From Escherichia phage BEK1-1: 44,592 nucleotides of DNA. Under the pieces are notes generated by a model, which was not told where the DNA came from, did no database searches, and saw only the letters and a list, made by a program, of their open reading frames with translations. Shown here one piece after another: positions 18,841 through 44,592 of this stretch (its first letter is position 1; every line of letters begins with the position of its first letter). Both the position numbers and the translations under genes were made by a program. Where the stretch lies: sequence record MN158212.1; one strand, written 5' to 3'.

Positions 18841-18854
18841 ATATATCTTAATTG

Positions 18855-29731: not shown

Positions 29732-29797
29732 ACACAGTATACATATATATAATAATAATAATAATAATAAAGTAAAAGGTTGATATATATAGATATT
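29732..29797. repeat. AT-rich element copy 2: ACACAGTA-(ATA)n-TAAAAGGTTGATATATATAGATATT
   Basis: Near-identical to 2928..2985, with a longer ATA run. Confidence 0.7.
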
Positions 29798-29983
29798 ATA
29801 TTGTATATCGTGTGTATATCTCGCGTAAAAACGTAGGTTAGTGGTCACTAACTTTTGTGACGACACTGAGTATACGGAGGATACGCGTATATCGATGAGA
29901 ACCTTACCGATTGGTAAAAAATCAACTTGTATGGTAGTCCATCCATCTTTCATTCACTCACTCACCACTTTATTTTACTTTTC

Positions 29984-30069
29984 GCAACAATCAAAGACAT
30001 CATTGCATCTGAAGCAATATTGCTGTATATGCAATAATCATGTGAATCATTGCAATATCTGCAACAATC
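29984..30069. repeat. iteron-like cluster (GCAACAATC x2, ATCATTGCA x2, palindrome GCAATATTGC)
   Basis: Direct reading of gcaacaatcaaagacatcattgcatctgaagcaatattgctgtatatgcaataatcatgtgaatcattgcaatatctgcaacaatcc. Confidence 0.5.
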
Positions 30070-30085
30070 CATAAATCTGACGAAT

Positions 30086-30129
30086 GGCACTTTTTGCTAA
30101 AGACACTGGAGGTCATGGAGGATATAGTT
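30086..30129 (+). promoter_or_regulatory. box promoter, half-box variant (CACTTTTTGCTAAA, about 20 nt, TATAGT, leader AACTCATCAAAACGAGG)
   Basis: Direct reading. Confidence 0.45.
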
Positions 30130-30154
30130 AACTCATCAAAACGAGGAGATAGAA

Positions 30155-30334
30155 ATGAAGATTGATAAAGATGAACTTCGTAACGAATGCGCACTGATTG
30201 GGCTTAATGAAGATTACACGAAACTTGTGGTGCGCGGAAAGTTAGACATTGACTTGGCTAAGCAATTCCAGTCAGAAGATGAATTCATGTGCTGTGATGG
30301 GCTTGGCTGCGCAGAATGTTTACCATTTATTTGA
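30155..30334 (+). CDS. hypothetical Cys-rich small protein (59 aa)
   Basis: Below the track cutoff; GAGGAG RBS; C-terminal CCDGLGCAEC cluster. Confidence 0.4.
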   Translation: MKIDKDELRNECALIGLNEDYTKLVVRGKLDIDLAKQFQSEDEFMCCDGLGCAECLPFI

Positions 30335-30344
30335 GGATTGAGAC

Positions 30345-30584
30345 ATGAAAACTCGCTGTACCAATTGCATTACAAGTACCGGCAAGAAGGTATTAACTCC
30401 ATTCGTTAAAGGCTCTGTATACGACGCTGAGCCGCTAATCATTAACGGTAAGGCAATCCCGAACGAATGGTTGATTAATGGCGCTGAGAGACCGCACAAG
30501 CACGATTCTGGATGGATTGCTATCGCTGGCTGGAAGGTTGGGATGTTTATTCCTGGGATTGCAACTTTTGACGAGGTGAAGTGA
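30345..30584 (+). CDS. hypothetical protein (79 aa)
   Basis: ORF with RBS-like GAGG; second gene of the rightward early operon. Confidence 0.4.
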   Translation: MKTRCTNCITSTGKKVLTPFVKGSVYDAEPLIINGKAIPNEWLINGAERPHKHDSGWIAIAGWKVGMFIPGIATFDEVK

Positions 30585-30745
30585 TGCTGCTGCCATCTGA
30601 GATAAATTATTTCGATCTTGAAGTCATAAGCGCATACAGCTGGAAGGGTTGGCCTTGCGGGGACTGGTTTCGCGAAGACTTACTTGAGAGTCATGAAATT
30701 ATGCTCAAGGCCATAGAAAAAGCACGAAATAGCACTAATTGCTAA
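30584..30745 (+). CDS. hypothetical protein (53 aa)
   Basis: ATG overlaps the upstream stop (TGATG); 3' end AAT AGC ACT AAT TGC TAA coincides with the box. Confidence 0.35.
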   Translation: MLLPSEINYFDLEVISAYSWKGWPCGDWFREDLLESHEIMLKAIEKARNSTNC

Positions 30746-30772
30746 ACACTGATCGCAAGGATGCGGTATTAT
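30727..30772 (+). promoter_or_regulatory. box promoter (AAATAGCACTAATTGCTAAA, 20 nt, TATTAT)
   Basis: Box and spacer nearly identical to the cor promoter (CACTGATCGCAAGGATGCG). Confidence 0.5.
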
Positions 30773-30798
30773 CTTTACATCAAAACGGGAGATAAGAA

Positions 30799-30963
30799 AT
30801 GTTCGACAACTTTCATGACGCGATAGAAGAGGCATTGTACCGCGCGTCACTTGATGGGAAGATTTACGGTTTAGTTCAGAAGGTTGACAAGATTGTTGTG
30901 CGAATCGTGCGCAAATCAGTACCTAACAAATTCATGTGGACAACTAAGAGAGTAACAAAATGA
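30799..30963 (+). CDS. hypothetical protein (54 aa)
   Basis: GGGAG RBS; below the track cutoff. Confidence 0.35.
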   Translation: MFDNFHDAIEEALYRASLDGKIYGLVQKVDKIVVRIVRKSVPNKFMWTTKRVTK

Positions 30964-31313
30964 CCAATACGATTACCAAAAACTGGATCAGCAACGAAAA
31001 TGTACTCTATAAAGCTCGCGTTAAAGATGGAGTAGAGCAAATCAAGAAAGATGGAAAATGGATTAACCTTGAAGAGCGCGGCAAGTACATCAAGACAAAG
31101 ACAATTTACTGCACAAATGTTAATCATCGCTCATCCATTCGTAAATACTTCACTGAAGGGAAGAGGTATCAAGTAGATCTCCATGCTGGACTTGGTCAGT
31201 TCGCTGGATACATTTACGATAAAGAGGGCAGCGCATGGCAGGTATATCGTGACGAAGATGTTGGCTTTGTTACAGTTTGCGGCGACTACCGCTTTGAGGC
31301 TCAATACCGATAA
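30960..31313 (+). CDS. hypothetical protein (117 aa)
   Basis: ATGA overlap with the upstream gene. Confidence 0.4.
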   Translation: MTNTITKNWISNENVLYKARVKDGVEQIKKDGKWINLEERGKYIKTKTIYCTNVNHRSSIRKYFTEGKRYQVDLHAGLGQFAGYIYDKEGSAWQVYRDEDVGFVTVCGDYRFEAQYR

Positions 31314-31387
31314 TAAGCACAAATTGACAATGAATTATAAGCGGCCGTTGATATAATGGCCGCTCAGAAACAATACGGAGACAAGTA

Positions 31388-32971
31388 ATGTTCGATTTCA
31401 ACGAAGATAAACTATCTGTTGAACAGGTTATGGCAATTGCTGCCGCAGAAAACCTCCCGCCCCTGCGCGTCGCCATTAATGCTAATGGCTATCGCCAGTC
31501 CCAGTCATTCTGGAAAGCACCAGTCGAGATTGATGCAGCTAATGACAAGTATCCAGTAATCTCACTAGGTAATGACATTGATGTTGTTGGTAAGCTGTCA
31601 GCTAATATTGCCCGATCTGTTCAGTTCCCTGAGTCGTCAGCTTACATGCACTTCCTGGGGTGTATTTCCGCTGCAATGCTGGGTCGATTTACTGTTGAGT
31701 ATCACGGAACGCAGCAACCGACTTCGCTTTACGTCGTAACAAGCCAGCCACCATCCACTGGTAAATCAGCCATTAACTCGCTATCGATTGCTCCAATGAT
31801 TGCTGAGACTCAGCGACTAAATGAAGTTAGAAAGCGTGAGCGCAAGAAAATTATGGCAAAACTATCTGCATTATCGAAAGAGATGAAACAGGAAAAATCT
31901 CCGTCAGAGATGGCCTCTCTTTTTGAGGAGAAGGAGGAGTTGGAGGAAAAACTCGAGAAACTATGCGATATCGTTTTCCCAGTATCAGATACCACACCAG
32001 AAGGTCTGGCCCGAATCAACAACCGCCAGGGCAACTTTGCTGTAATCTCTGATGAGGCAACGAGTGTAAACTCACTACTTGGCATGACCTATGGTGACGG
32101 CTCAAAGAAAACGAACAGCGAACTGGTACTGAAGGCATGGGATGCTGGTAACGTATCTATCGCTCGCGCTAACGCTGAAAACAACATGAGTTTTGTTGCT
32201 ATGGGTTGCATCTCTGTAATTGCGCAGGATGAGACAATCAACGCTATCATGAACGCTGGCGCGCGTGGTATCGGTGTATCTGAGCGTTTCCTGCTTGTAC
32301 GTGAAAAGTCATTCCTTGGCGAGCGTGTATTCGTTGATGAAAATGGCGAATCGACTTATGAACCAATTGATGCCGGGTTGAAGGCTGATTACTTCCGTTT
32401 AGTTCACGAAATCATGAATGAGCAAGATGTAAAGTTGACGGTGAGCAACTCAGCGATGAAATATCTCAACCGTGCACGTCAGGAAATGGAGCCTCATCTT
32501 GCTGACGGCGGTAAGTATTCCCACACAATGTTGCGCGGCGCGCTGGGTAAGTTCGATAAACAGGCTATAAGGATTGCAGCCGTTCTTCACACAGTTCGCA
32601 ACTGGTTCAACCCTAACGGTGGGAGTCCACAGAAGTCCAGAGAAATCGAGCTCGACACCATGCAAGAGGCTGTGATTATGTTCCAGGAACTGAGTAAGAC
32701 TTATTTGTCATCTGCCAACGCTGCGGGTCACGCTGGCGACAATGCAGAGATGAATAAGCTGATTGATATCCTGATTAAGCAAGGCAAAAACGGGAAAGGA
32801 GTAGTAGGTATTCGTTCGCTATATGAAGCGGCTCGCAAGGTTAAGCCATTCGAGGCTCAGGCTGGAGTGATGACGAAGATTAAAGATCACCTGCTGCCAA
32901 TGCTTGATGAGAAAAACTATACGTGCCTGATTGGTGATAAGGTTTACATTAATCCGCGACTTCTGGGGTGA
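31388..32971 (+). CDS. P-loop NTPase-like protein (527 aa), long paralogue of ORF 28380..28904
   Basis: Walker-A-like ...TSQPPSTGKSAI..., Walker-B-like ...FAVISDEAT... about 100 aa later; N- and C-terminal about 45 and 65 aa match the 174-aa protein. Confidence 0.5.
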   Translation: MFDFNEDKLSVEQVMAIAAAENLPPLRVAINANGYRQSQSFWKAPVEIDAANDKYPVISLGNDIDVVGKLSANIARSVQFPESSAYMHFLGCISAAMLGRFTVEYHGTQQPTSLYVVTSQPPSTGKSAINSLSIAPMIAETQRLNEVRKRERKKIMAKLSALSKEMKQEKSPSEMASLFEEKEELEEKLEKLCDIVFPVSDTTPEGLARINNRQGNFAVISDEATSVNSLLGMTYGDGSKKTNSELVLKAWDAGNVSIARANAENNMSFVAMGCISVIAQDETINAIMNAGARGIGVSERFLLVREKSFLGERVFVDENGESTYEPIDAGLKADYFRLVHEIMNEQDVKLTVSNSAMKYLNRARQEMEPHLADGGKYSHTMLRGALGKFDKQAIRIAAVLHTVRNWFNPNGGSPQKSREIELDTMQEAVIMFQELSKTYLSSANAAGHAGDNAEMNKLIDILIKQGKNGKGVVGIRSLYEAARKVKPFEAQAGVMTKIKDHLLPMLDEKNYTCLIGDKVYINPRLLG

Positions 32972-32974
32972 TGA

Positions 32975-33310
32975 ATGTTCATTTTGGATTTATACCGCTT
33001 CTGTGAGTCGTATTCATACTTTACGCGTCAGCATTTGGCGCGATTCATCTACCAACATAAGGACTCCCAGAGATTCAGTAAAGCGGCGGGGTTATCTCAT
33101 AGAGAGTTTTGCAGCGCGGCTTCAAAGGAGTTTTGCGCAAAGATGTTAACTGCTGGATACATTGATGGTAAGTGTGGTGAGTTTGTTAGCAAGGGGAGTT
33201 TGAAAAGGCCATTTGATTTCAACTTCGAGGCGCTTGGCGGGTATCAGAGCAAGTACATAAAGGAGATGATGAATATAGGAACAATGACTGACGATGAGTT
33301 ATTTGGGTAA
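32975..33310 (+). CDS. hypothetical protein (111 aa)
   Basis: ORF directly after the P-loop gene; followed by a terminator. Confidence 0.4.
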   Translation: MFILDLYRFCESYSYFTRQHLARFIYQHKDSQRFSKAAGLSHREFCSAASKEFCAKMLTAGYIDGKCGEFVSKGSLKRPFDFNFEALGGYQSKYIKEMMNIGTMTDDELFG

Positions 33311-33315
33311 AAATA

Positions 33316-33338
33316 TAGCCTCCATTAGGAGGCTTTTT
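33316..33338. terminator. bidirectional intrinsic terminator between convergent genes
   Basis: AGCCTCC-ATTA-GGAGGCT followed by TTTTTTACG; A/T run on the other strand. Confidence 0.7.
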
Positions 33339-33714
33339 TACGCCTTAAGATTAAGGTCAGGAGAATCAGAACAAGCAACCCCATAGCTCCTGTTCCAACC
33401 CACGGAAGCGCTGATGATTCGTTATTGGTAATTTCAATCTTTTCGGCAGTGATTGTTGAGGCCTTAATCGAATTGTCGGCAGTCTTTTTTCCGCTCGAGC
33501 TATCCAGAGAGCCTACGCTAGAATCCTTAACGGAAGCATCGCTGGAGTTACTGGAGTCAACCCTGTTCGTTAACCCGACACCAACCTTATTGTTCTCTGC
33601 ACCAGCTTGAGCGCTAATCTCTGGCTTACTGCCAATTAAACCAGTCAGCGCAGATGTTGCTGAACATCCAGATAAAGCTACGCACATTACTAACGCTGCA
33701 ATCCGCTTAAGCAT
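33325..33714 (-). CDS. unimolecular spanin (u-spanin, T1 gp11-type)
   Basis: N-terminal lipoprotein signal with lipobox LSGC and C-terminal transmembrane helix plus RRKKAS; Ser-rich middle; overlaps the endolysin gene end. Confidence 0.65.
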   Translation of the reverse strand: MLKRIAALVMCVALSGCSATSALTGLIGSKPEISAQAGAENNKVGVGLTNRVDSSNSSDASVKDSSVGSLDSSSGKKTADNSIKASTITAEKIEITNNESSALPWVGTGAMGLLVLILLTLILRRKKAS

Positions 33715-34175
33715 AACTTAATCTCCTCATTCCTGCGGTTTACCAAGCCCTTAACCACAACCCTCTTGCCATTAACGGTGGCTTTATTCCACATCCCGAG
33801 AGCCTTGCAGCCCTGCTCAATCTTACCCTGGTTAATTAACTTAACGGCAGTGGATCTCCTCATTGCAGAGCCACCAACATTATAGCTAAAGCTGATTAAC
33901 GCAGCTCTTGTCTGCGGTGCTATGGGGTAGGTAACCGCATCCTGAACATACTTAGCATGAATCTGGATGTGCTTCTCCAGCAGATTGCGGCACTCCCTGT
34001 TGCTGTATGTTTTACCCCAGACCACATCTGGACCGGTAATACCTGAACAAACTGTAGGTATTCCGGCAATGTCCATGTACGGCTTGTTCTCCACGCCCTC
34101 AACGAGCTCAATAAGCGGCGCTGCGATGTATATTGCTGCAGCCGTAGCCGAGCTAATTAGCAGCTTCTGCTTCAT
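33690..34175 (-). CDS. SAR endolysin (T4-type lysozyme fold, GH24-like)
   Basis: N-terminal weakly hydrophobic segment LLISSATAAAIYIAAPLI followed by E-x8-D-x5-T (E..VENKPYMD.IAGIPT). Confidence 0.7.
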   Translation of the reverse strand: MKQKLLISSATAAAIYIAAPLIELVEGVENKPYMDIAGIPTVCSGITGPDVVWGKTYSNRECRNLLEKHIQIHAKYVQDAVTYPIAPQTRAALISFSYNVGGSAMRRSTAVKLINQGKIEQGCKALGMWNKATVNGKRVVVKGLVNRRNEEIKLCLSGLQR

Positions 34176-34391
34176 TTACTTGCTCCTTATATTGATTGCT
34201 GTTTTCAAGTCTCCCGATTCAAGAGCCCGCCTGATAGCTTGACTATCCTTATACTTCCAGTAAGCACCCCAAACTCCAAAAATGATTAGAGCGATAAGGC
34301 TGATTATTGCTATAGTCATTTGACCAGTTGCTGCGCCAGTTACCGCAGCACCTCCTGTTGATGCCGTAGCGGCGTTAATTACTTCCCTCAT
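34176..34391 (-). CDS. holin (pinholin-like, two hydrophobic segments)
   Basis: Start at internal ATG (MREVIN...) after GGTGGA; Gly/Ala-rich first segment then AIISLIALIIFGVWGAYW; immediately upstream of the endolysin. Confidence 0.55.
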   Translation of the reverse strand: MREVINAATASTGGAAVTGAATGQMTIAIISLIALIIFGVWGAYWKYKDSQAIRRALESGDLKTAINIRSK

Positions 34392-34467
34392 GTGATCCAC
34401 CTTTATGTATTTGTCAATGTTTAAGTTAATAAAAGAATGATACATTAGCACCGCTCGGAAAAGAAGC

Positions 34468-34495
34468 ATAAAAAAAGGGAGCCAAAAGGCTCCCC
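34468..34495 (-). terminator. intrinsic terminator upstream of the lysis cassette
   Basis: Minus strand GGGAGCC-TTTT-GGCTCCC followed by TTTTTTTATGC. Confidence 0.7.
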
Positions 34496-34521
34496 GCTTG
34501 TAACACTATGTTTTAGATACA

Positions 34522-34698
34522 CTAGTCAGCGATAATAAATTCAACTAACGAGCCATCAATCGGCGCTAAAATGTGCGTCATATCGTCGCCATAAATCTTG
34601 TAGTATCCATCGCCCTGGTACTCTGCGTTGTACGGCTGGTTAACTGTAAATGGCAGTGTCTTGGAATTGTTTTTGGTGCAATAAATCATTTTAGTCAT
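34522..34698 (-). CDS. hypothetical protein (58 aa)
   Basis: Below the track cutoff; RBS GAGGAAACACAAAATG; box promoter upstream. Confidence 0.35.
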   Translation of the reverse strand: MTKMIYCTKNNSKTLPFTVNQPYNAEYQGDGYYKIYGDDMTHILAPIDGSLVEFIIAD

Positions 34699-34739
34699 TT
34701 TGTGTTTCCTCGTTTAGTTTATCTCGTTTCGATGTGGTG

Positions 34740-34786
34740 ATTATGCCGCATTTCTACGGCATTAGTTAGGCAAAAAGTGCTATTTA
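34740..34786 (-). promoter_or_regulatory. box promoter, half-box variant (AAATAGCAC..., 20 nt, CATAAT, leader ACCACATCGAAACGAG)
   Basis: Direct reading of the reverse complement. Confidence 0.45.
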
Positions 34787-35265
34787 CCGTGCCTCTCTGT
34801 GAATTCTGGGTTACCCTCGTAAACTGACTTCGCATATGATACTGCTTCTTCTTTTGTGTAGAAGGTTTTGTAAACCCTGTTTTTATCAATCTGAATTTGA
34901 ACAAGCCACGGCTTTCCATCCCTTTTTATCTTATTTATGAAGTAAACACCTGTAACTCCTGATGTGTTATCCTTTCTCATAGCTGCATTCTTGCAGTTAA
35001 CCCATCTATCTACGCATCTCAAATTCTCTATCCGATTATCGTGCTTAACTCCATTAATGTGATCGATTTCCATACCTTTAGGGACTTCTCCGTTATGCAT
35101 TTCCCATATTACTCGATGGGCAAAAGTCATCTTTGAAAACAGTTTAGTCCTAACGTACCCCCTCAAATCAATATACCCAGCCTTAACTCCGTTATAAGAT
35201 GATACCCTGTGGTTCTTTCTGTACAAATCACCATTTGAATATTCGTAATAATCGTGCCAATTCAT
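34780..35265 (-). CDS. HNH homing endonuclease with AP2-like DNA-binding domain
   Basis: ...AHRVIWEMH...EIDHINGVKHDNRIENLR... (HNH) and ...SGVTGVYF...KPWLVQI...KTFYTKEEA... (AP2-like). Confidence 0.7.
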   Translation of the reverse strand: MNWHDYYEYSNGDLYRKNHRVSSYNGVKAGYIDLRGYVRTKLFSKMTFAHRVIWEMHNGEVPKGMEIDHINGVKHDNRIENLRCVDRWVNCKNAAMRKDNTSGVTGVYFINKIKRDGKPWLVQIQIDKNRVYKTFYTKEEAVSYAKSVYEGNPEFTERHGK

Positions 35266-35293
35266 TTCAATCTCCTCTCGTTTCTATAAAACA

Positions 35294-35339
35294 ATAATAG
35301 CCGCTTTCGCGGCTACTGTTTTAACAAAAGGTGCTATTA
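35294..35339 (-). promoter_or_regulatory. box promoter, variant, with hairpin TAGCCGC-GAAA-GCGGCTA inside the 20-nt spacer
   Basis: Direct reading; the hairpin may also terminate transcripts from the upstream phosphoesterase gene. Confidence 0.4.
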
Positions 35340-36491
35340 GTATTTGGATCCAGGGTTTGCGTCACGAAGCATTTCAACAGGAATGCTCACTCGACTAACT
35401 TCTCCATACTTCTTGTGATACGTAATAACGTTTGCACTACGCCCAGAGAAGTACCCGCCCTTGGATGAGTACTCATCTTTTGCAGCAAGTGTCTGGTGTT
35501 GCTCAATAATCATCAAGCTAGTTTCCTTAACCGCTCTGTGGTGCAGGTGGCCTAGGTGCGTGTATGCGAACTTGGATTTACCAAACATCTCACGATACTT
35601 AGCAATTATTGCTGATTCAACTCTGGAGAAGTTAGCGCAATGCCCGTGATGCATGGCAATCATAACGTCTCCAAATTCATATGCGTAGTAAGGGGAAACT
35701 TCGCGATTCACTTCAACTCGCTCATTTTCAATAAATACTTCATGAAACATCTCGCGCAACCATAATGAAGATACCGGGTTGTGATTTCCCTCACAAATCA
35801 ATAGCTTAACCTTTTTATGTTTAACCAGGCACATGCTTATGGCTGCCTTGATTAATTTAATCTGAGTCCGAATCATTCGGAATAATCTAGTATCAGCAGA
35901 AAGAATGTGACCACTCATTGGGGTTACAGCTTTCATTGAGTCGTAGTGAGCCTCATCCCCTAAAAAGTTAATTATGCATTCATCGCTGTTCGGGCTCATT
36001 GCCACGGCGCTGCTGAACCAGTCCAATGCTAATTTCTCAGCAATCTTGGTGTCATAATTGTCACCACCTTCCTCTGCGCAAGCAAGCATTCCAATGTGAT
36101 GGTCTGTGATGGTGTAGAGGTTGAGAATGTCAGAATTAGTTATCTCACCTGAGTGGTTAACAGCATCGTACTTAGGTAGCTCTTTCTTAAGCTCCTCAAC
36201 AACAATTTGCATCAGCTCTTGCTGTCGCTCCTTGTCAACTTCTGATTTAACCCACTGACCTTTAATCTCACCATCGGCACCAATTAAGCTAGACACACCT
36301 TTGACAGCGTAACCTTGAGGAATTAGGTTGCTTACATCACGGCCGTGCCCCTCACCCCGTTTTGCCAGCTTACTACGACGCAATTCAACGTTGCGAATGT
36401 TCATTCCGTACTTCTCTGCGATTGCCTTGTTGGTCATTCCATTCGCCAGCTCTTCGCGTAGTTGTTCGTTGGTGATTTTTGCAGTTGCCAT
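35337..36491 (-). CDS. calcineurin-like metallophosphoesterase with N-terminal helix-turn-helix domain
   Basis: N-terminal ...MTNKAIAEKYGMNIRNVELRR... (HTH-like); phosphoesterase-like motifs ...ITDHHIG..., ...GDEAH..., ...EGNHN..., ...MHHGH..., ...GHLHH... Confidence 0.55.
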   Translation of the reverse strand: MATAKITNEQLREELANGMTNKAIAEKYGMNIRNVELRRSKLAKRGEGHGRDVSNLIPQGYAVKGVSSLIGADGEIKGQWVKSEVDKERQQELMQIVVEELKKELPKYDAVNHSGEITNSDILNLYTITDHHIGMLACAEEGGDNYDTKIAEKLALDWFSSAVAMSPNSDECIINFLGDEAHYDSMKAVTPMSGHILSADTRLFRMIRTQIKLIKAAISMCLVKHKKVKLLICEGNHNPVSSLWLREMFHEVFIENERVEVNREVSPYYAYEFGDVMIAMHHGHCANFSRVESAIIAKYREMFGKSKFAYTHLGHLHHRAVKETSLMIIEQHQTLAAKDEYSSKGGYFSGRSANVITYHKKYGEVSRVSIPVEMLRDANPGSKY

Positions 36492-36574
36492 TATATAAGT
36501 TCCTTAATTCATTACGATAAAGTATAAGATAGTAAAGCTAAACAGTGGGGCTAATGCTACTAGTATCAGGCCCT

Positions 36575-36832
36575 TCATTCAACTTCTTTCAACCAGTAGT
36601 CAATCAAATCAGCACTAATTGCTAATTTCTGGTCAAGGTCAGTCATACAAAGGTCTCCGCATGCTGGGGAGTAGTAAATCTGAACCCACTTCCCGTCTTT
36701 AGTTTTTGCGTTCACATCCACATAATCTGGAGGAAACCAGTCAGAGATGGGTATCGCTCTAAACTTTGCACCACTTTGACCATATACTAAATCGTAATGA
36801 TCTGGCTGAAAATCTAAACCCAACATACTCAA
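36575..36832 (-). CDS. hypothetical protein (85 aa)
   Basis: ORF; ATGA-type overlap with the upstream gene. Confidence 0.35.
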   Translation of the reverse strand: MSMLGLDFQPDHYDLVYGQSGAKFRAIPISDWFPPDYVDVNAKTKDGKWVQIYYSPACGDLCMTDLDQKLAISADLIDYWLKEVE

Positions 36833-37077
36833 TCCTTAGGCTTCGTTATCTTAAACTTGAATCCCTCAGATTTAAGGAACTCGTTAACATCAATTCTAAC
36901 ACCCGGCTTAACTCTTACGTATTTTCTTGGGCGCTCATCCATATAAGAGAATTTACCATTGAAAACAACGCTGATGTCTTTTATATCAAAGAAGCGGGAT
37001 ATCTGCTTAATGTCATCCTGTAACCCCGCCTCACCACAATGTGCCCAAACTGCGGCGCGTCCGGTTTCAACTATCAT
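36829..37077 (-). CDS. hypothetical protein (82 aa)
   Basis: ORF in a translationally coupled chain. Confidence 0.35.
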   Translation of the reverse strand: MIVETGRAAVWAHCGEAGLQDDIKQISRFFDIKDISVVFNGKFSYMDERPRKYVRVKPGVRIDVNEFLKSEGFKFKITKPKD

Positions 37078-37198
37078 AATCCGTAAGCCATTTTCAGGTA
37101 TTCTTTAGCGCACATCCAACAATATTCTGAGTCTGTTTTAACTGCTTCATTTGCATATGTCTGTGCAATTTCGAACATCTCTTTGTCTACGATTTTCA

Positions 37199-37420
37199 TT
37201 ATTCAAAATCCTCTGGGCAATCTTTCTTCATTTCTGCAATGTCTGCAACCATACGGTCACGCCATGTTTCTACATCTGTGTTCAGGTAATCTTCTTCAAA
37301 GCTCATATCCAGGCAAAATGCTAAGTCCCAGGGGTTTTTGTTAAATCCAGACTTCTTTAGTTCCTCAACTGCCATTAGCTTAAAGACTTCCCATTGATTT
37401 TCAAATGTAAAGATTGCCAT
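37199..37420 (-). CDS. hypothetical acidic protein (73 aa)
   Basis: ORF in a translationally coupled chain. Confidence 0.35.
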   Translation of the reverse strand: MAIFTFENQWEVFKLMAVEELKKSGFNKNPWDLAFCLDMSFEEDYLNTDVETWRDRMVADIAEMKKDCPEDFE

Positions 37421-37662
37421 TATTCTGATACCTCATCAAATTTTTCGCCAAATGCGTTTTTAACAGTTTCCAGGTCATCTTTGTAAGTCGGGCTAACTTC
37501 GAAAGCATAACCCTCACCATCGTCAAGAACATAGCCATCAGGGGTGATTACCAATTCATACTCATAACCAGTTTTGCGTGATTCGTAGAATTTTCCAGTG
37601 TAGATAGTAGCCATTTTGTTTCTCTCTCTGTGTTTCGTTTCGATGGAGTAACTATACCCCAA
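37420..37662 (-). CDS. hypothetical protein (80 aa)
   Basis: ORF with box promoter upstream. Confidence 0.4.
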   Translation of the reverse strand: MGYSYSIETKHRERNKMATIYTGKFYESRKTGYEYELVITPDGYVLDDGEGYAFEVSPTYKDDLETVKNAFGEKFDEVSE

Positions 37663-37696
37663 TCTTTAAAATCGTCTTTAGCAATTCGTGCTATTT
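37651..37696 (-). promoter_or_regulatory. box promoter (AAATAGCACGAATTGCTAAA, 20 nt, TATAGT, leader ACTCCATCGAAACGAAA)
   Basis: Direct reading of the reverse complement. Confidence 0.55.
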
Positions 37697-38110
37697 TGAA
37701 ATCATTTCTTCAAATGCTGCCAGGAAGCCCTCTCTACCGTAGGCAACTCCAGCGAAACCTCCTGATTCTCTCACGCTTTTAAGGAAGGACTTCTGTTCGT
37801 CACTGACTGGACTAGCTTGAGTTTTTCCCGCCCTCTTTAGCTCTATGGCCCCAAAAGGGTACTTTCCTCTAAGTGATTCAGGTATCAGGAATAAGCAGTC
37901 CGAAACCCCCTTAAGCAATCCTTTGGCCTGGTCCTTCCTTGCTTGTCCAATGGTCTTCTTACCCTCATTCACGCAGTGGAAAAATACCATCTCTGGATAG
38001 TTATACTTAACCCAATCAGAGCAAAAGATTTGTTCGTCATCCTCTTTCGGGCATGACTTAACCGGGCCAGGGTAAAACTCAATGTAATCAACTTTGTCTG
38101 TAATGTTCAT
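37691..38110 (-). CDS. VRR-NUC domain nuclease
   Basis: ...GVSDCLFLIPE...GAIELKRAGKTQASPVSDEQKSFL...GGFAGVA fits the VRR-NUC PD-(D/E)XK pattern; coupled to the helicase gene. Confidence 0.6.
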   Translation of the reverse strand: MNITDKVDYIEFYPGPVKSCPKEDDEQIFCSDWVKYNYPEMVFFHCVNEGKKTIGQARKDQAKGLLKGVSDCLFLIPESLRGKYPFGAIELKRAGKTQASPVSDEQKSFLKSVRESGGFAGVAYGREGFLAAFEEMISK

Positions 38111-40101
38111 AACAATTCTCCAAAATTCTTAAAAGCTATTATATCATTTCCTTTGCCATTCTTGCGGTGTGTCACCTGGACTGGCGCACGAAACTTATCT
38201 GCGTTAGTCATAATCATTCTGGCATTCTTCAGTCTGCCAATTCGTGCTGCTTCAGCTCGATTTTCAATGTGAGCAAGGCAAAAGTTTTTCCAAAGCACAC
38301 TACAAACCCTGTGGTCAGATTCTGGATTGAAGAACTCCCAAGCATTAAACCGCTCTCCGTTGTGCGCCATGATATTGTACTTAACAACAATTCCCGTTTG
38401 GTTCTTACTTAAGCCAACCTGAAAATCATAAACACGAAGGTAATCACCACGTCGATACATTTTTCCAGTAAGATTGGCATTCGGGTCTTTAAGCATTTCT
38501 CCGCATTCACGACAAACTTTTGCTGCTATGTCATTTTTAGTTCCACAACCTTTCTTGATTACCGCCTTTGTTTGTTGGTCGGTAATATCATCACATGTCG
38601 TGAACTGGAAAAAGTGATCGCATCTAACACCATCAATCTTATTGCTACAGCGTCTAGCAAATGGCGAGTTCTCATATCCACATTTCGGACACTGGCGAAC
38701 CTCATCACCACCTTTTCTTGAGGATTTAAACTTCTCAGCCTGAATCTCCTCAATTATTGGGTCAAAGTAAAGCTCTGCCATGTCATCAAGCGCCCCGGCA
38801 AAGTCTAATACCAAGTGGTCCTCCTTCTTGAACCCAGCATCTATGTGCGCCTTTTTTAGTTTTCGCATGCCACGACCAAGAAGCTGAATCATTAAGGTTA
38901 TACTGCCAATCTTGCGTAGTATGACGCTAGTATCCCACAGTGGTTGGTTTACGCCCGTGGTTAGACATCCAATCTGAAAGATAATCTTGTACTTTCCAGT
39001 CTGGCAATCAGCAAGAATCTCCCTGCGCTTCTTCTCCCCCGTAGAATCAGTAATGATAGCGTAAGGGTATCCATCTGGGAGTGCCTCGGCGGCTTCATCA
39101 CAATGTAGTTTGCCAGCGCATGTTACCAATGCGGCATTGCGAGTCTCAAGTATTTTTACAACAAAACCCATTATCTTTTGAGTCATGGATTGGTTGTCGT
39201 GAATCTTTGCAGCCATTGCGTCCATTTCTTTCTTGCTGAAATCCTTCACGCCATCGCTTCCGTCTGGCGCAAACTCACTAAGGTCATAACCAAGGTCACC
39301 AACCTCGCCGTAAACAGTTGGTACCACGAATCCCAAATCAACAAGGTAATTTGTTGGAACCTGAATCACAGTTTTTCGCCAGAACCCACGGATGTTTGGA
39401 TTGCTAACGACGATATGGTCATTATTTCGATAAGGGCTACCAGTAAGGCCGAATATACGAAGCTCCCGCCCGTATTTTTCACGGCAGCGACGCTTCATCT
39501 CAGTGATTATTAACGTGTACTGCGCGCGACCAGTGCCAAGCAACCCTGTGTTTACGCCATCCTTAAAAACCATCTCGCCTTTCTTTGTGCTCATCTGCTC
39601 AAATGTTTCTTCATTCTCTTCGGCTTCCACGATATCCATGTGATCGACCATGTGGCATTCATCTATAGCTATAACGGCAGGAACATAGTCACCAAGCCCC
39701 TTAAACAAGCCGTTAGCTGCCGTGCCCTCACTAGCAACTATGGTTGGGTAGTAAACTGATTTAACGTTAAGTCCGGCGCAATAGACGCTGTTGCGGATGC
39801 CGAAATTACGAAGTTCTTCTGAGTTCTGGCTTATTATCTCTGACTGGCGAGAAAGAACCATGTAAGGCAACCCTAATTGCTCCATTCGCTTTCCAATCAT
39901 GGCGAGAATGATTGTCTTACCAGCAGATACTGAAAGGTCTGCGATAAATGGGGCCTCGTACTTCCCAATAGCCTTTCCGATAGCATCAAATGTAACGCAC
40001 TGGAACTCGTAAGGAGTTATCTCTCCAAACTGATAATCTTTCTGAATCTGTTTAATTCTTTCTTTATCAAAGTTTGCAACCTGCTTCTCGATAGGCAACA
40101 T
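38107..40101 (-). CDS. DExH-box (SF2) helicase with C-terminal Cys-rich zinc-ribbon region
   Basis: Motif I-like ...SVSAGKTIIL..., motif II ...IDECHMV...; C-terminal ...CPKCGYEN...C...C... cluster. Confidence 0.7.
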   Translation of the reverse strand: MLPIEKQVANFDKERIKQIQKDYQFGEITPYEFQCVTFDAIGKAIGKYEAPFIADLSVSAGKTIILAMIGKRMEQLGLPYMVLSRQSEIISQNSEELRNFGIRNSVYCAGLNVKSVYYPTIVASEGTAANGLFKGLGDYVPAVIAIDECHMVDHMDIVEAEENEETFEQMSTKKGEMVFKDGVNTGLLGTGRAQYTLIITEMKRRCREKYGRELRIFGLTGSPYRNNDHIVVSNPNIRGFWRKTVIQVPTNYLVDLGFVVPTVYGEVGDLGYDLSEFAPDGSDGVKDFSKKEMDAMAAKIHDNQSMTQKIMGFVVKILETRNAALVTCAGKLHCDEAAEALPDGYPYAIITDSTGEKKRREILADCQTGKYKIIFQIGCLTTGVNQPLWDTSVILRKIGSITLMIQLLGRGMRKLKKAHIDAGFKKEDHLVLDFAGALDDMAELYFDPIIEEIQAEKFKSSRKGGDEVRQCPKCGYENSPFARRCSNKIDGVRCDHFFQFTTCDDITDQQTKAVIKKGCGTKNDIAAKVCRECGEMLKDPNANLTGKMYRRGDYLRVYDFQVGLSKNQTGIVVKYNIMAHNGERFNAWEFFNPESDHRVCSVLWKNFCLAHIENRAEAARIGRLKNARMIMTNADKFRAPVQVTHRKNGKGNDIIAFKNFGELL

Positions 40102-40149
40102 ATCTGAATTCCTATAAAAATTGTCTTGTAGCGTTTAATTGAGTACAAT

Positions 40150-40191
40150 ATTACCATCAAATCATGATGACTTTTAACAAAAAATGCTATT
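40150..40191 (-). promoter_or_regulatory. box promoter, half-box variant, upstream of the helicase gene
   Basis: CAATAGCATTTTTTGTTAAA, 20 nt, AATATT on the reverse complement. Confidence 0.35.
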
Positions 40192-40202
40192 GAGGTAATA
40201 AG

Positions 40203-40688
40203 ATGAATGCAGTCGACAAGCGAACCATTAACGGTAATAACGGAACCATCCGCACTGAAGACAAAAAGCAACGGAAACGACCTTCAGGTTACTACGTTTT
40301 GAAAGATGAGGTAAGGGCGGGTTTACGTGCGCGGCTGGAAATTGTTCTTGATTTCTTCGGCACAAAGGCAAATATGGCAAAGCAATTAAAGGTAACACCA
40401 CAGGCTGTAGAGGAATGGTTTAAGCGCGGCATGATTTCTGCGCGCGGGGCTCAACTCTCACACAACTACTACAAGCGAACCGGGGAAGGCTTTCGCGCCA
40501 CATTCTGCCGACCAGATCTGCAATTCGACGGCAACGGCAAGCCTCTTACTCTACGTTGCAAAAAGCGTCACATGCTGCGTGTTGTTACTGAGGCTGAATT
40601 AGCCACCAAGCCAGAGTGTCGATCATGGCGCAAGATTAAGGAAGAGAATCGCAAAAAGCGAGAAGCAGAGAAAAATAGCACGAATTGA
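40203..40688 (+). CDS. putative HTH DNA-binding regulator (161 aa)
   Basis: ...FGTKANMAKQLKVTPQAVEEWFKRGMIS... resembles a Cro/CI-type helix-turn-helix; basic N- and C-termini. Confidence 0.45.
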   Translation: MNAVDKRTINGNNGTIRTEDKKQRKRPSGYYVLKDEVRAGLRARLEIVLDFFGTKANMAKQLKVTPQAVEEWFKRGMISARGAQLSHNYYKRTGEGFRATFCRPDLQFDGNGKPLTLRCKKRHMLRVVTEAELATKPECRSWRKIKEENRKKREAEKNSTN

Positions 40689-40725
40689 TAAACAATGGCG
40701 CTATGCATTGTGTATAGTGCCTTTA
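40673..40725 (+). promoter_or_regulatory. box promoter (AAATAGCACGAATTGATAAA, 20 nt, TATAGT) upstream of the second HNH gene
   Basis: The box overlaps the last codons (NSTN-stop) of the HTH gene. Confidence 0.5.
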
Positions 40726-40738
40726 TTGTTTATGGAGG

Positions 40739-41269
40739 GTGTATATGAAAGTTAATGATTTTGTTTATGTTGATGATGAATTTAAATTAAGATGGAAGAG
40801 TAGAGGTGTTGAATTCTTCAAAACAGAGAGGTCATCAAAGATCTGGAATAGTAGGTTTGCAAACAAGGAATGTGGATACATTAGGGATGACGGCTATCTT
40901 TCTTTTGAGTTCAATGGTCGAGCATACAGAAATCACAGGGTGATATGGGAAATTGTAACTGGTAATGAAATAGATGATAACATGGAGATTGACCATATAG
41001 ATCATAATACAACAAACAACAATACTGAAAACCTTAGACTTGTTGACAGGAAAGAGAATTGCAAAAACCAATCCATGATGCCCCATAACTCGAGTGGCTT
41101 CACAGGTGTTCACTGGTGGTCAGCAAGAAACAAATGGAGAGCCCGCATCGAATGTGATGGCAGAGTGAAAACAAAAACATTTGAAGACTTTAATGACGCC
41201 GTCGAGTGGAGAAAAGAAATGAACATAAATCTTGGCTTTCACAAGAATCATGGAGATAAGAAAAAATGA
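40739..41269 (+). CDS. HNH homing endonuclease with AP2-like domain (paralogue of 34780..35265)
   Basis: ...YRNHRVIWEI...EIDHIDHNTTNNNTENLR... and ...SGFTGVHW...KWRARIECDGRVKTKTFEDFNDAVEW... Confidence 0.7.
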   Translation: MYMKVNDFVYVDDEFKLRWKSRGVEFFKTERSSKIWNSRFANKECGYIRDDGYLSFEFNGRAYRNHRVIWEIVTGNEIDDNMEIDHIDHNTTNNNTENLRLVDRKENCKNQSMMPHNSSGFTGVHWWSARNKWRARIECDGRVKTKTFEDFNDAVEWRKEMNINLGFHKNHGDKKK

Positions 41270-42189
41270 AATTTTATGATAAGAAAGAGGTATTGCCAAG
41301 AATGATGGGGATGTGGAAGGATGCCCTCATAAACATTTGTGATGCGCCTGAGAGCTTCTTTAATGGCAAGCACCAGCCATGCCTATATTGTGGAGGTCGG
41401 GATCGGGCTAGATGGACTGATAACCTATCTATAAAAGGTGACGGCGGAAATATATGCAATCAGTGCGGAAACGACACTGGAATAGGGTTGATGATGAGGC
41501 TTACTGGAATGAACTACAATGAGGCCATAAATGTATTAGGTGACTGGCTCAACCTTATACCTACAGAGGCTATATCAAAAGCAAACAAAAGAGCTTCAAG
41601 AACATCACCATACAAAATGGGAGCACAGATCGACCACGAAAGATGCCTGGAGATAATGGAAAGAACTGAAAGAGTAGAATCAACCCCACTCAGCACATAT
41701 GAGGGTATCTATAGTGAGTTTGGTTTTGATGTTGGCAGGACAAAATCAGGCGAACTAATACACGCAATACCGTGTTTTATGGCTTATAGTGACGGCATAT
41801 CGGAAGAAATGTGCAATGTAATGTTTATCAATGAAGATGGAGATGTTAGTTATGCTGCAAAAGATTATACTCGCCAATCTGTCGCTGTTATTGGTGCCTT
41901 TAAAAGTGATGAGTACGCTTATCTGGTCGATAATCTCATTGACGGCTATCGTGTTCACATTGCTACTGGGAGCCGCTGTGTGCTTGTTTGCTACTCTAGT
42001 TACAACATGGAAATGGTTGCTTATGCGCTTAGAAACCACAAGCTGAGAGTGGCTTGTACTCGCCACGATTTTGATTTACTCGCCGTTGCTGATGATCGCA
42101 ATCTTGATGTGGTAATGCCAAATGATGATAATTTTTTCAAGTCAGGCATAAGAAAGCGAATATACAAAGCAAGCGAATTACTAGACTAA
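41266..42189 (+). CDS. putative DNA primase (N-terminal Zn-ribbon)
   Basis: ...CLYCGGRDRARW...CNQCGN... resembles the primase zinc-ribbon; lies next to the helicase block; ATGA overlap with the HNH gene. Confidence 0.5.
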   Translation: MKFYDKKEVLPRMMGMWKDALINICDAPESFFNGKHQPCLYCGGRDRARWTDNLSIKGDGGNICNQCGNDTGIGLMMRLTGMNYNEAINVLGDWLNLIPTEAISKANKRASRTSPYKMGAQIDHERCLEIMERTERVESTPLSTYEGIYSEFGFDVGRTKSGELIHAIPCFMAYSDGISEEMCNVMFINEDGDVSYAAKDYTRQSVAVIGAFKSDEYAYLVDNLIDGYRVHIATGSRCVLVCYSSYNMEMVAYALRNHKLRVACTRHDFDLLAVADDRNLDVVMPNDDNFFKSGIRKRIYKASELLD

Positions 42190-42211
42190 CCTCCTTCGGT
42201 AGGTTTTTTTA
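42188..42211 (+). terminator. intrinsic terminator after the primase gene
   Basis: AACCTCC-TTCG-GTAGGTT followed by TTTTTTT. Confidence 0.65.
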
Positions 42212-42276
42212 TGCCTGAAAGATGATACAATCCAATTTAGCAATTCTTGCTATTTTACAAATGGAGACTTTACACA

Positions 42277-44592
42277 ATGGCAATTTATGACTTAGGAACC
42301 GCCTCGCTGGCCGCAAATGGCGAGGTAACTGGCGTGGGGACAACATGGAAAGCACCTCTTACACTGATCAGGGTTGGTGCAACTATCATTTTTAAAACTA
42401 ACCCACTAAAAATTTACACCATCTCTGAAATCATCAGTGATACGCAGATTAATGTTTACAATCCTAATTCTGAAACAGTTCCGGCTGGTACGGGTTATGC
42501 GATTCTTGCGCACGATGGTATTACGGTTCAGGGTTTGGCTCAGGATGTTGCGGAGACACTTCGTTATTATCAGAGCAAGGAAACTAGCATTCAGAGCCTT
42601 CTTGATTTCATTGGTCAAGATTCTTTTGACTGGCCTAGATTCGAACAATTAGCAAAGCAGTCAGTAACAGGTGCTGCCGAGGCTTTAGCTAGCCAGATTG
42701 TCGCAGCAGAGAGCGCCGCTACTGCTGTTAGTGCAAGAAACATAACTACAGCCGCAAGAGATGCAACTATCGCGGCCATTGATAGCGCTGGGGACGCGGG
42801 TACTATGGTTGCTCTCGCCGGGATGGGAATTAGCGGAACAACGCCACTTCTAACATCGCTTGACTGGGATACATTTAATTTCAACTCTGGCTCTCGTTAC
42901 CTATGCCGGGTATCATCGATGACCAACGCCCCGGAGGTGATAACATCAACCTTCCCATCTGAGGCAGTTTGCATAATTGAAGTGAAATCAAACAGAGGGA
43001 TCAATGGTCAGAAAAACTTCCAGATTTCAGCAAACACGTCATCTGATAACCTGTACAGGGTCATTGACTTAAACCAGATTGTAACGGGCGGTGTGCGCTC
43101 CTATGTATCTAGGGAGGCTCTGTATGTTGCTTCTGGCTCTAATGCTGGTGGCGCAAGCGCAGAACGAGTAAGGGGGTTGCTTGATGTTTATTCAAAAAAT
43201 GAGACTTTTCAAAAATCATTGAATTTCTCTGACGTTGAAAATAAAGCCACAGCAAGAAATAATCTTGATGTTTACTCAAAGTTAGACATTAACTCAAGAG
43301 ATGGCTATTCAACTAATCTTGCGGAAGTTACTTCAGGGCTATCAAGCGGTATGGCAACTATATCTAAGTCCTTGGTTATCTCCGATGGGCTTTCGGTGCC
43401 TTCATTTGCTGAAATATCAGGCGATAAAAACTTTAGGGCTGGTTTTATTGGAGTTGATTATAGAAAGAACAAGACGATAAGGAAAAGTTCAAACTCTACA
43501 GTTACATTATCAAATCAGGATTCCAACGCAGGCAGTCAGGTTGTTGACGCAGTTCTTTACCAGGACCCAGCGTGGCCTTTTGCTTCTGTTTACCCGCAGA
43601 AGACAACAATAAAAAATCTAACAATTGAGGGTAACTCGGCTGCAAGCAAGAATCAGGCAGCGATTTACATCCTACAGGCAGGCGTTGCTGAAATTGATGG
43701 CGTAGATACTATTAACTGTAAGTATTCAGTGTGGTCAAAGGATATTTTTCAGACGCGCATTAATCGCGTTTTCTCTAACGACGGAAAGATAAGGCTGGAT
43801 AACGGAACATCAGTTGTGATTTCTAACTGCGGGCTTGCATCATCAGACACGGAGAGAACTGGAGCCTTTGACCTTACCGGAATGAAGTACTCAACAATGA
43901 TTAGCTGCACTTCAGACCACACGACAAATACCGCTTATTCAATCAATGCGTGTGAGGGTTTAAGCATGATTTCATGTGGGTGTGAAGCATCAGGAACAAC
44001 TACACCAAATTCAGGAACGGCGATTGCATTTAGGGATAACAATAGGAATATCTTTGTTAGTGGATTCTCATGCTTACCTGTACCAGATCAAGGGCCTGCA
44101 TTGGTTAGCTTCGGATCTAACAATGATATCAACCTTACTAACTTTCAAGTCATACCAGGAATAAACTACTCATCTGACTTCTATATTGCTGGCCCTGGAA
44201 ACAACATCGTTATCAATGGCGGTCGTTTTGGGCGTTCTGGCGGCTTGATGCCTGTTGTGACAGCTAGTGGAAGCGCAATTGGATCAAGGATTACATACAA
44301 CGCATCAAACGGCGTAACTTATGATTACGTAGTTTCCGCGCCTGGAGTTGTAAATCCAGTGCCGAGAAAAAGCGCAATAACTTCTATTCTAGTAAATGCT
44401 GAAGGTAATGTGATTAGAGGGTCCGGGGCTTCATGCGTGAGAGAGGCTAATGGAACGTACCTTGTAACTCTTGATTATTCAAATGGAATTACTGGCGCAT
44501 CAGTTGATTTGTATGGTTACATTGGTTTATCTTCATTTGTGTTTGTTGATAACAACAAGATTAGGGTTAGCGTAACAAATACAGGAGGAACA
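42277..44592 (+). CDS. tail fibre / tailspike-like protein, 3'-truncated by the window end
   Basis: Frame checked open over 42277..43200 and 43201..44592 by manual translation (at least 772 codons); N-terminus MAIYDLGTASLAANGEVTGVGTTW...; C-terminal part Gly/Ser/Asn/Thr-rich with repetitive short beta-strand-like segments. Confidence 0.5.
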   Translation, partial: MAIYDLGTASLAANGEVTGVGTTWKAPLTLIRVGATIIFKTNPLKIYTISEIISDTQINVYNPNSETVPAGTGYAILAHDGITVQGLAQDVAETLRYYQSKETSIQSLLDFIGQDSFDWPRFEQLAKQSVTGAAEALASQIVAAESAATAVSARNITTAARDATIAAIDSAGDAGTMVALAGMGISGTTPLLTSLDWDTFNFNSGSRYLCRVSSMTNAPEVITSTFPSEAVCIIEVKSNRGINGQKNFQISANTSSDNLYRVIDLNQIVTGGVRSYVSREALYVASGSNAGGASAERVRGLLDVYSKNETFQKSLNFSDVENKATARNNLDVYSKLDINSRDGYSTNLAEVTSGLSSGMATISKSLVISDGLSVPSFAEISGDKNFRAGFIGVDYRKNKTIRKSSNSTVTLSNQDSNAGSQVVDAVLYQDPAWPFASVYPQKTTIKNLTIEGNSAASKNQAAIYILQAGVAEIDGVDTINCKYSVWSKDIFQTRINRVFSNDGKIRLDNGTSVVISNCGLASSDTERTGAFDLTGMKYSTMISCTSDHTTNTAYSINACEGLSMISCGCEASGTTTPNSGTAIAFRDNNRNIFVSGFSCLPVPDQGPALVSFGSNNDINLTNFQVIPGINYSSDFYIAGPGNNIVINGGRFGRSGGLMPVVTASGSAIGSRITYNASNGVTYDYVVSAPGVVNPVPRKSAITSILVNAEGNVIRGSGASCVREANGTYLVTLDYSNGITGASVDLYGYIGLSSFVFVDNNKIRVSVTNTGGT

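Follow-up and report, generated by a model that had tools for sequence, protein, structure and literature searches.

Introduction

Promoter-early stem-loops (PeSLs) of T4-type phages are cassettes in which a promoter and a terminator are combined and through which modules are shuffled (PMC2839356; PMC4122927). A PeSL contains a strong sigma70 promoter and a G-T-paired stem-loop, which lies between the -35 and -10 elements, overlaps the -10 element or is located just before the start; in vivo the stem-loop acts as a terminator, genes are shuffled by recombination between cassettes, and promoter activity, terminator activity and mini-circles have all been demonstrated experimentally (PMC2839356; PMC4122927). 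In T1-like phages, a 21-nucleotide direct repeat, aaATAGCACnnnTTGnTAAAA, was reported in 2024 at 21 places in TLS and also in T1, Rtp and Rogue1, about 76 nucleotides before start codons; a stoperator, an enhancer or an UP-like role was proposed for it, its function being stated as unknown, and the re-annotation of TLS in the same study includes three sigma70-like promoters only (PMC11447400). Here, we describe a repeated element in a stretch of 44,592 nucleotides from Escherichia phage BEK1-1 (sequence record MN158212.1; this whole stretch is hereafter called the window), which is marked by an 11-nucleotide block, CATCGAAACGA. An initial annotation of the window had taken this block, together with a preceding A(C/T)(C/T)CC, as a conserved transcribed leader. 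The block probably comprises the start site and the first transcribed bases (-1 to about +10) of a promoter-terminator cassette resembling the PeSLs.

The window is grouped by megablast with the Rtp/T1-like siphophages (Drexlerviridae). Its top DNA matches are Escherichia phages of the vB_EcoS-2005III group with about 92% identity, its large terminase (TerL) is 98% identical to the counterpart in phage vB_ecoS_OzMSK, and its gene order is that of T1, TLS and Rtp. The TLS repeat is the same element as the upstream box of the cassette described here, oriented with transcription. The published account covers the repeat alone: the -10 hexamer at a fixed distance from it, the G at -14, the hairpin and the start block CATCGAAACGA are absent from that account, and a literature search found no description of these features of the modules.

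Anatomy of the Cassette and Its Start Block

The block forms the 3' end of an intergenic cassette of about 75 base pairs, 17 modules of which are present in the window, and the cassette is also present in T1, TLS and Klebsiella phage KLPN1. The order within a module is a box (aaATAGCACnnnTTGcTAAAA), a variable stretch, a hexamer, some six bases (mostly C-rich), the block, a short leader rich in A, a GAGG or GGAG sequence and an ATG. The distance from the TTG of the box to the hexamer is 25 nucleotides in 69 of 86 modules from five genomes, and nearly all intergenic boxes have a well-matching hexamer with A at the second and T at the sixth position (TAnnnT) located 24-26 nucleotides downstream. 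The 25-nucleotide spacer usually holds a hairpin of variable sequence.

A logo was made from a hexamer-anchored alignment of 65 modules from the window, T1, TLS and KLPN1, which represent four genera; TerL of KLPN1 is only about 51% identical to that of BEK1-1. Numbered from the predicted transcription start, the box (-52 to -31) carries 1-1.7 bits per position, G at -14 is found in 82%, C at -3 in 66%, C at -1 in 66% and A at +1 in 82% of modules, and the information at each of positions +2 to +12 (T C G A A A C g A a a) is 0.3-0.65 bits. A pattern scan of IMG/VR gave mostly chance matches, and filtering left 50 non-identical modules on 27 contigs; they show an identical logo, and their commonest 11-mer is again CATCGAAACGA. 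The block is real, non-random and family-wide.

The exact 11-mer has five copies in the window, compared with none in 100 dinucleotide-preserving shuffles, and thus a chance origin of the exact block is excluded. The first copy (3916-3926, plus strand) follows a box at 3864-3886 and a -10 hexamer at 3905-3910 and precedes an ATG at 3946. The second (15050-15060, minus strand), with its box at 15090-15112, -10 hexamer at 15066-15071 and ATG at 15030-15032, belongs to the only module within the structural gene block. The third (26694-26704, minus strand) is accompanied by a GGGGTAA..TTACCCC hairpin with the -10 hexamer in its loop (-14.2 kcal/mol, z = -5.3), and the fourth (34724-34734, minus strand) is identical from +1 onward in phage OzMSK. 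The fifth (37635-37645, minus strand, -1 to +10) lies in the region 37621-37660 highlighted in the initial annotation, in which the -10 hexamer, the block and the leader up to a purine-rich Shine-Dalgarno (SD) region follow one another on the minus strand. All six promoters listed in that annotation were found with the sequences quoted for them, five with the exact block and the sixth, at 28324-28334 (minus strand), with AATCGAAAACA; these sites likewise have the GAGG or AGGA ribosome binding site and an A-rich stretch ahead of the ATG, and the block is indeed conserved ahead of unrelated genes.

At the focal site on the minus strand, the box aaaATAGCACgaaTTGCTAAAg (37675-37697, about -53 to -31) is the 21-nucleotide repeat published for TLS, T1, Rtp and Rogue1 (PMC11447400), and the upstream open reading frame (ORF) 37691-38110 terminates at the TAG of this box (37691-37693). 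The -10 hexamer TATAGT (37651-37656) is preceded by a G at -14 and lies 25 nucleotides after the TTG of the box. The predicted transcription start, judged from its position, is the A of CC/ATCG at 37644, the seventh base past the hexamer, with C at -1. In the other exact copies, the corresponding A is at 34733, 26703, 15059 and 3917. Beyond the block, the remainder of the 30-nucleotide leader, containing AACACAGAGAGAGAAACAAA and a purine-rich SD-like region, extends with the ATG (37612-37614) over 37612-37634. The ATG opens a 64-amino-acid ORF (37420-37614), for which a Pfam search gave no match.

When up to two mismatches are allowed, 19 block matches are found against 11.75 expected, which is unremarkable as a count alone. 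The striking feature of the block is its fixed position, not its mismatch-tolerant count: the A of CATCG is the seventh base after the TAnnnT hexamer in all five exact copies and in about eight degenerate ones. The degenerate copies with this offset include AATCGAAAACA at 28324, CATCAAAACGA (30134-30144, plus strand), which belongs to the first promoter of a rightward unit and has no hairpin, TATAGAAACGA (35278-35288, minus strand), which is preceded by the GNRA-type hairpin GCCGCgaaaGCGGC, and CATCAACCACA; CATCAAAACGG (30778-30788, plus strand) has the same offset.

Is this conservation simply a trace of copying? The spacers of the five exact copies are mutually unrelated, and in orthologous modules the block is kept while the spacer and discriminator are altered, so conservation of the block is not due to recent duplication.

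Promoter Type and Transcription Start

Escherichia coli RNA polymerase tends to start at a purine about seven nucleotides past the -10 hexamer, with a pyrimidine before it. By this rule, +1 in the modules is predicted to be the A of CC/ATCG, and therefore the motif of the initial annotation would straddle the start. Upstream of +1, A(C/T)(C/T)CC together with the C of CATCG would belong to the untranscribed discriminator, and ATCGAAACGA, corresponding to +1 to +10, would be transcribed. The description as a transcribed leader thus suits ATCGAAACGA, which lies past the predicted start, and does not suit A(C/T)(C/T)CC and the following C, which lie before it.

The promoter to which the block belongs resembles the extended -10 type. 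G at -14 is found in 53 of the 65 modules, the full TG in only 27, and the best match to a -35 hexamer averages 2.69 out of 6 compared with 2.41 at random, so that no -35 element is seen above chance. Two hallmarks of extended -10 promoters, in which a -35 is dispensable, are present: a hexamer with T-12, A-11 and T-7, and a G at -14. A generic sigma70 -35/-10 scan of 25000-44592 detected 39 sites compared with 39.7 in shuffles. That a standard scan performs no better than this explains why published annotations of the T1-like family contain few or inconsistent promoters.

Other assignments for the same sequences were considered. Sigma54 promoters have the consensus TGGCAC-N5-TTGC at -24/-12; the box, TAGCAC-N3-TTGC, is 2 base pairs too short for this, and almost every copy has A in place of the first G of GG. 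Use of TTGCTA in the box as a -35 hexamer was also ruled out, as the spacer would be 22 nucleotides. Hexamers resembling the -10 element are depleted in +1 to +25 (0.26 per module compared with 0.50 in shuffles), which rules out a sigma70-dependent promoter-proximal pause or a late element of the lambdoid Q type.

Is the Block Locked to the Promoter or to the Ribosome?

The initial annotation had suggested that the block is a shared post-transcriptional signal. In this reading, the first 10 nucleotides, AUCGAAACGA, would be recognized by the 30S subunit or ribosomal protein S1 as an A-rich enhancer, by an RNA-binding protein of phage or host or by 5'-end-dependent decay machinery, so that translation or stability would be set uniformly. 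The block is predicted to be transcribed and to lie at the extreme 5' end. The predicted leaders are A-rich (49% A in +1 to +12) and unstructured, being less folded than shuffles in 53 of 65 modules, and with a median distance of 26 nucleotides from +1 to the start codon (mostly 18-40), the block is within reach of an SD-bound ribosome. These properties would suit a signal in RNA.

The spacing tells against it. The core motif is located at +3 in 21 of 27 cases, yet its distance from the ATG varies from 16 to 33 nucleotides, and the information content is 5.5 bits in +1 to +14 when modules are aligned on the start, compared with 2.5 bits in -30 to -15 when they are aligned on the ATG. It is the -10 element, not the SD sequence, to which the block is locked. 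The 8-mer ATCGAAAC occurs 17 times in four genomes, 10 of which fall within the 0.27% of sequence around predicted starts; the remaining seven compare with 5.9 expected, and this lack of enrichment away from promoters indicates that operon-internal genes, which have no promoter of their own, do not use the block.

Searches for a partner or a structure in RNA likewise gave little. The longest complementarity of the block to 16S ribosomal RNA is 6-7 nucleotides, shuffles giving mostly 5-7, and the duplex, with an energy of -5.9, is less stable than those of shuffles are on average (-8.1); a translational enhancer that pairs with ribosomal RNA was rejected because the complementarity is within the shuffle range. 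By itself the block adopts no stable fold (AUCGAAACGAAA, 0.0 kcal/mol), and a 5'-terminal hairpin, AUCG-AAA-CGAU, was set aside since it reached only -0.7 kcal/mol in one tested variant with a trailing U and otherwise 0.0. An Rfam search of the window showed no family at the block, the sole match being a tRNA gene at 24864-24938 on the minus strand (RF00005, 57 bits), where relatives annotate tRNA-Arg at the corresponding place. In addition, the same start context is found in the A1 and A3 promoters of T7, far from any ribosome binding site. Taken together, the results favour a promoter or initiation element over an RNA signal. What stands of the earlier suggestion is that the sequence is conserved and, as predicted, mostly transcribed; a signal acting in the leader RNA is rather unlikely.

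Hairpins Within the Cassettes

When the region from -31 to +4 was folded, a strong hairpin (z < -2) was found in 42 of 65 modules, with a median z of -3.6. There are two forms. In the first, the -10 hexamer is in the loop and the 3' arm consists of the discriminator, sometimes together with +1 to +4, as in GGGGTAA...TTACCCC of module 26752 (minus strand). The focal hairpin, GAU.UGGGGUA-UAGU-UACUCC.AUC (37642-37664, minus strand), which spans the -10 hexamer, is of this form; RNAfold of -31 to +4 gave -9.2 kcal/mol and z = -2.5, the 3' arm comprises the discriminator plus +1 to +3, and one G.U pair is included. Hairpins of the second form often have a GNRA loop, and their 3' end falls within the first bases of the hexamer. 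One of them is GCCGCgaaaGCGGC of module 35336 (minus strand), which is terminator-like with its T-rich tail and whose T1 orthologue carries a compensatory change, CCCGCgaaaGCGGG. Hairpins are located, for example, at 26700-26734, 31340-31366, 40697-40721 and 35296-35317. The arm sequences vary between modules, and because they differ, the ACCCC/ACTCC part of the motif in the initial annotation represents one common hairpin arm rather than a conserved signal.

In 40 of 49 hairpins, the sense-strand RNA is more stable than the antisense, and no such structure is seen at five of the six promoters that have no co-directional upstream ORF (Mann-Whitney p = 0.004). From the strand bias and the absence at first-in-unit promoters, the most likely target of the hairpin is read-through RNA, for which it would be a terminator or an insulator, a role suggested here by its distribution and folding. 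Three hairpins in the window pass a terminator scan, and most module hairpins have no U-tract. The promoters of N4 virion RNA polymerase provide a precedent for a DNA cruciform with the -10 element in its loop. A cruciform of this kind was set aside for the present modules, since the hairpins are sense-biased and missing at first-in-unit promoters. These hairpin-less promoters retain block-like starts, which indicates that the block is independent of the hairpin.

The same hairpins raise the question of whether the block is a processing site. An endonuclease could cut read-through RNA 3' of the hairpin within AUCGAAAC, so that the upstream message would keep a protective 3' hairpin and the downstream message would gain the same 5' end as RNA initiated at the promoter. 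The 3' arm abuts the block in roughly half of the modules, with its end falling at -1 to +4, and the sense bias of the hairpins, their G.U pairs and GNRA loops and their absence where upstream transcription is not expected would all suit such a site. However, the hairpins of the other class end their stems at -9 to -13, away from the block, and block-like starts are found at first-in-unit promoters, where there is no read-through RNA to be cut. Nor do the known enzymes fit well: RNase E prefers A/U-rich sites, which AUCGAAAC does not resemble, and RNase III needs stems longer than the 6-11 base pairs seen here. Processing at the block is thus very unlikely.

The Upstream Box and Candidate Binding Factors

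The core of the box, TAGCA-N5-TGCTA, is a palindrome centred near -42 and located at about -49 to -35 of each module (37679-37693 at the focal site). Compared with the E. coli Lrp consensus yAGhAwATTwTdCTr (PMC5554404), it mismatches at positions 6-7 in the TTT class and at positions 6-9 in the GAA class. The resemblance, seen at the level of sequence, is a lead for a box-binding factor. Another candidate for a box-binding protein may be the product of the ORF 40203-40688 (plus strand), a homologue of a protein annotated as a transcriptional regulator in T1, Rtp and OzMSK. It gives a sub-threshold match to the P22_Cro helix-turn-helix (HTH) family, 26.2 bits compared with a cutoff of 30.2; its gene and the helicase gene are divergent, and the box of module 40676 (plus strand) contains its stop codon. 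Box-like sequences are also found on the strand opposite to late structural genes, at 15085, 18849 and 25060 (all minus strand) in T1 and at 15041 (minus strand) in TLS; the T1 box at 18849 has a TAAGAT hexamer and a GC-rich hairpin downstream. These could be antisense promoters or reverse-oriented boxes.

A regulator might instead bind the block itself. The core of the block, TCGAAACGA (TCG-N3-CGA, +2 to +10), could serve as a palindromic operator for a phage protein, for example the Cro-like HTH product of 40203-40688, by which all promoters would be switched together. The core is a 3+3 palindrome situated where a repressor would block initiation, and the phage encodes the weakly P22_Cro-like protein whose homologues are annotated as transcriptional regulators. 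In contrast, the common variants ATCAAAACGA, ATTGAAGCGA, ATAGAAACGA and ATCAACCAA break the palindrome, and the information content of 0.3-0.65 bits per position is low beside the 1-1.7 bits in the box. An operator at the block is highly improbable.

In a broader proposal, box and block together would define a dedicated promoter class that needs a factor, either a phage Cro/C2-like HTH protein or host Lrp at the palindrome near -42, with +1 to +10 as a second element read as DNA or as the 5' end of the RNA. We regard this possibility as unlikely. If true, all transcription units of a T1-like phage could be controlled through one global handle.

Mosaicism and the Cassette as a Linker

The box contains stop codons in three frames, TAA at -4, TAG at 0 and TAA at +13 relative to TAGCAC. 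In four genomes, the actual stop codon of the upstream gene is the TAG of the box in 25 modules, the TAA at -4 in seven and the TAA at +13 in six. Within the window, the TAG ends the upstream ORF in seven of 17 modules, at 37691-37693, 34780-34782, 28380-28382, 27874-27876, 27421-27423, 25960-25962 and 3868-3870. Stops in three frames are a feature expected of a universal linker between gene cassettes.

Boundaries of homology between related phages are concentrated at the cassettes. When the window was compared with OzMSK and Rtp by blastn, 26 of 80 homology ends were located within 60 nucleotides of a predicted start, compared with 3.6 expected, and they concentrate where the box begins, at the hexamer and over +4 to +31. 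For example, in the comparison over 34724-34786, module 34782 (minus strand) and its counterpart in OzMSK have leaders identical from +1 and downstream proteins that are 100% identical, while the box variant, spacer, hexamer and discriminator are unrelated, which places the junction between -1 and the hexamer. Inside the window, the modules at 3868-3903 and 30730-30765 share an identical 36-nucleotide box plus spacer, TAGCACTAATTGCTAAACACTGATCGCAAGGATGCG, and diverge afterwards, a pattern that indicates a recent copy of half a cassette. Recombination among cassette copies probably helps to keep the block uniform.

Could such recombination or gene conversion account for the block entirely, as a linker part homogenized between cassettes with no function of its own? 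The homology breakpoints at the cassettes, including those at +4 to +31 just past the block and those at the -10 element, and the recent copying seen in modules 3868 and 30730 (both plus strand) are what it would predict. The spacer between the box, the -10 element and the block has nevertheless diverged to unrelated sequence, so that conservation is position-specific rather than wholesale, and the same start logo is shared by Klebsiella and E. coli phages despite TerL proteins only about 51% identical. A functionless block is therefore quite unlikely.

A Working Model and Its Significance

As the start-site region, the block would be one part of a repeated promoter of the -35-less, extended -10 sigma70 type built into a compact intergenic cassette. 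At the 5' end of the cassette, the stop codon of the upstream gene lies inside the 21-nucleotide box at -52 to -31. There follow a variable hairpin that spans the -10 hexamer or ends in it, G-14 and TAnnnT, a C-rich discriminator with C-1 and A+1, ATCGAAACGA, and an A-rich unstructured leader of about 26 nucleotides with the SD sequence and the ATG. Transcription by the host RNA polymerase would begin with the A of CC/ATCG. The sequence from +1 to +10 would act mainly at the level of DNA and initiation, fixing the start site; as an A-rich initial transcribed sequence without pause elements it would permit efficient escape, and it would give every transcript the same unstructured 5' end. ACYCC would be a discriminator doubling as the 3' arm of the hairpin, which in turn would serve as a terminator or insulator for read-through RNA from upstream. 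Mosaic segments between related phages have their boundaries at the cassette as a whole, the block included. The anatomy, the constant spacing, the conservation across the family, the unstructured leader and the clustering of breakpoints are observed; the start site, promoter and terminator activity and the part played in escape are predicted.

Several points weigh against this model. A fixed distance from the -10 element is equally expected of an RNA signal anchored to the 5' end, and the leaders are so short that the block falls inside the 30S footprint, which makes a translational contribution possible. A literature search found no mapped 5' ends, RNA-seq or promoter assays for any Drexlerviridae. 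Since A2 and T6 of the hexamer (TAnnnT) were the selection criterion, their 100% conservation is partly circular, and only the fixed position of the hexamer is independent. The helicase promoters are among the predicted promoters that have no block, so the block is unnecessary for the promoter type. Finally, nearly every sizeable intergenic gap in the early region holds a module, which makes breakpoint clustering inseparable from intergenic position. The likeness to T7 start sites discussed below is also statistically weak, A1 and A3 scoring in the top 3.5% and 1.8% of positions, respectively, under an ungapped matrix.

The T1-like phages (Drexlerviridae) abound, find use in therapy and are notorious as contaminants of fermentation, and their transcription programme is essentially unmapped. 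The succession of box, extended -10 element at a fixed distance, start block and short leader provides a concrete promoter map for 17 units in the window; it also accounts for the mosaic gene content by shuffling of cassettes and offers compact parts that combine promoter and terminator. What is gained for the block is modest: it is recast from a leader signal to the start-site part of a promoter.

Comparison With Known Systems

Like the modules, extended -10 (TGn) sigma70 promoters have TAnnnT and no recognizable -35, and G-14 is found in 82% of modules. They differ in that extended -10 promoters need no long upstream box; the box at a fixed distance in the modules suggests an additional contact or factor.

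The start context has a parallel in T7. The mapped start of the A1 promoter, GATACT TACAGCC/ATCGAGAGG, has a context, CC/ATCGA, nearly identical to that of the module consensus TATAGT TACCCC/ATCGAAACGA, and that of A3, TACGAT GTACCAC/ATGAAACGACAG, can be aligned to the module with a gap of 1 nucleotide. A1, A3 and the modules are alike as strong phage promoters with an A start after C, the activity of the modules being predicted. Unlike the modules, the T7 A promoters have good -35 hexamers and neither box nor hairpin. A1 and A3 sit more than 170 nucleotides upstream of the first T7 gene, and thus the context that they have in common cannot concern translation. The likeness is an analogy rather than a proof and may reflect coincidence or convergence.

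The closest known kind is the PeSL. Both PeSL and BEK1-1 module are repeated intergenic cassettes of about 70-100 base pairs that extend from the stop codon of the upstream gene as far as the SD sequence and start codon of the next gene, and both combine a sigma70-type promoter (predicted in the case of the module) with a stable, variable stem-loop containing G-T pairs. The position of the stem-loop in the module, between the upstream element and the -10 element, overlapping the -10 element or just before the start, is as in PeSLs, and both kinds of cassette are found at gene-replacement boundaries between close relatives. The extent from stop to start, the variable stem-loop and the replacement boundaries are thus shared, while the -35 element and AT-rich upstream region of PeSLs have no equivalent: a PeSL has consensus -35 and -10 hexamers and an AT-rich upstream region, and the module has instead the box TAGCACnnnTTGcTAAAA at a fixed 25 nucleotides and G-14. 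A conserved start block is present in the modules, and none has been described for PeSLs. The activities of PeSLs were established by experiment; those of the modules are predicted from sequence. The two belong to different phage families, the modules to Drexlerviridae siphoviruses, and there is no evidence of common descent. As the block is most likely the start region of a cassette that joins promoter and hairpin, and not a separate RNA signal, it refines only modestly a kind of regulatory cassette already known from phages, and by analogy the Drexlerviridae module is PeSL-like in its working, with a different motif.

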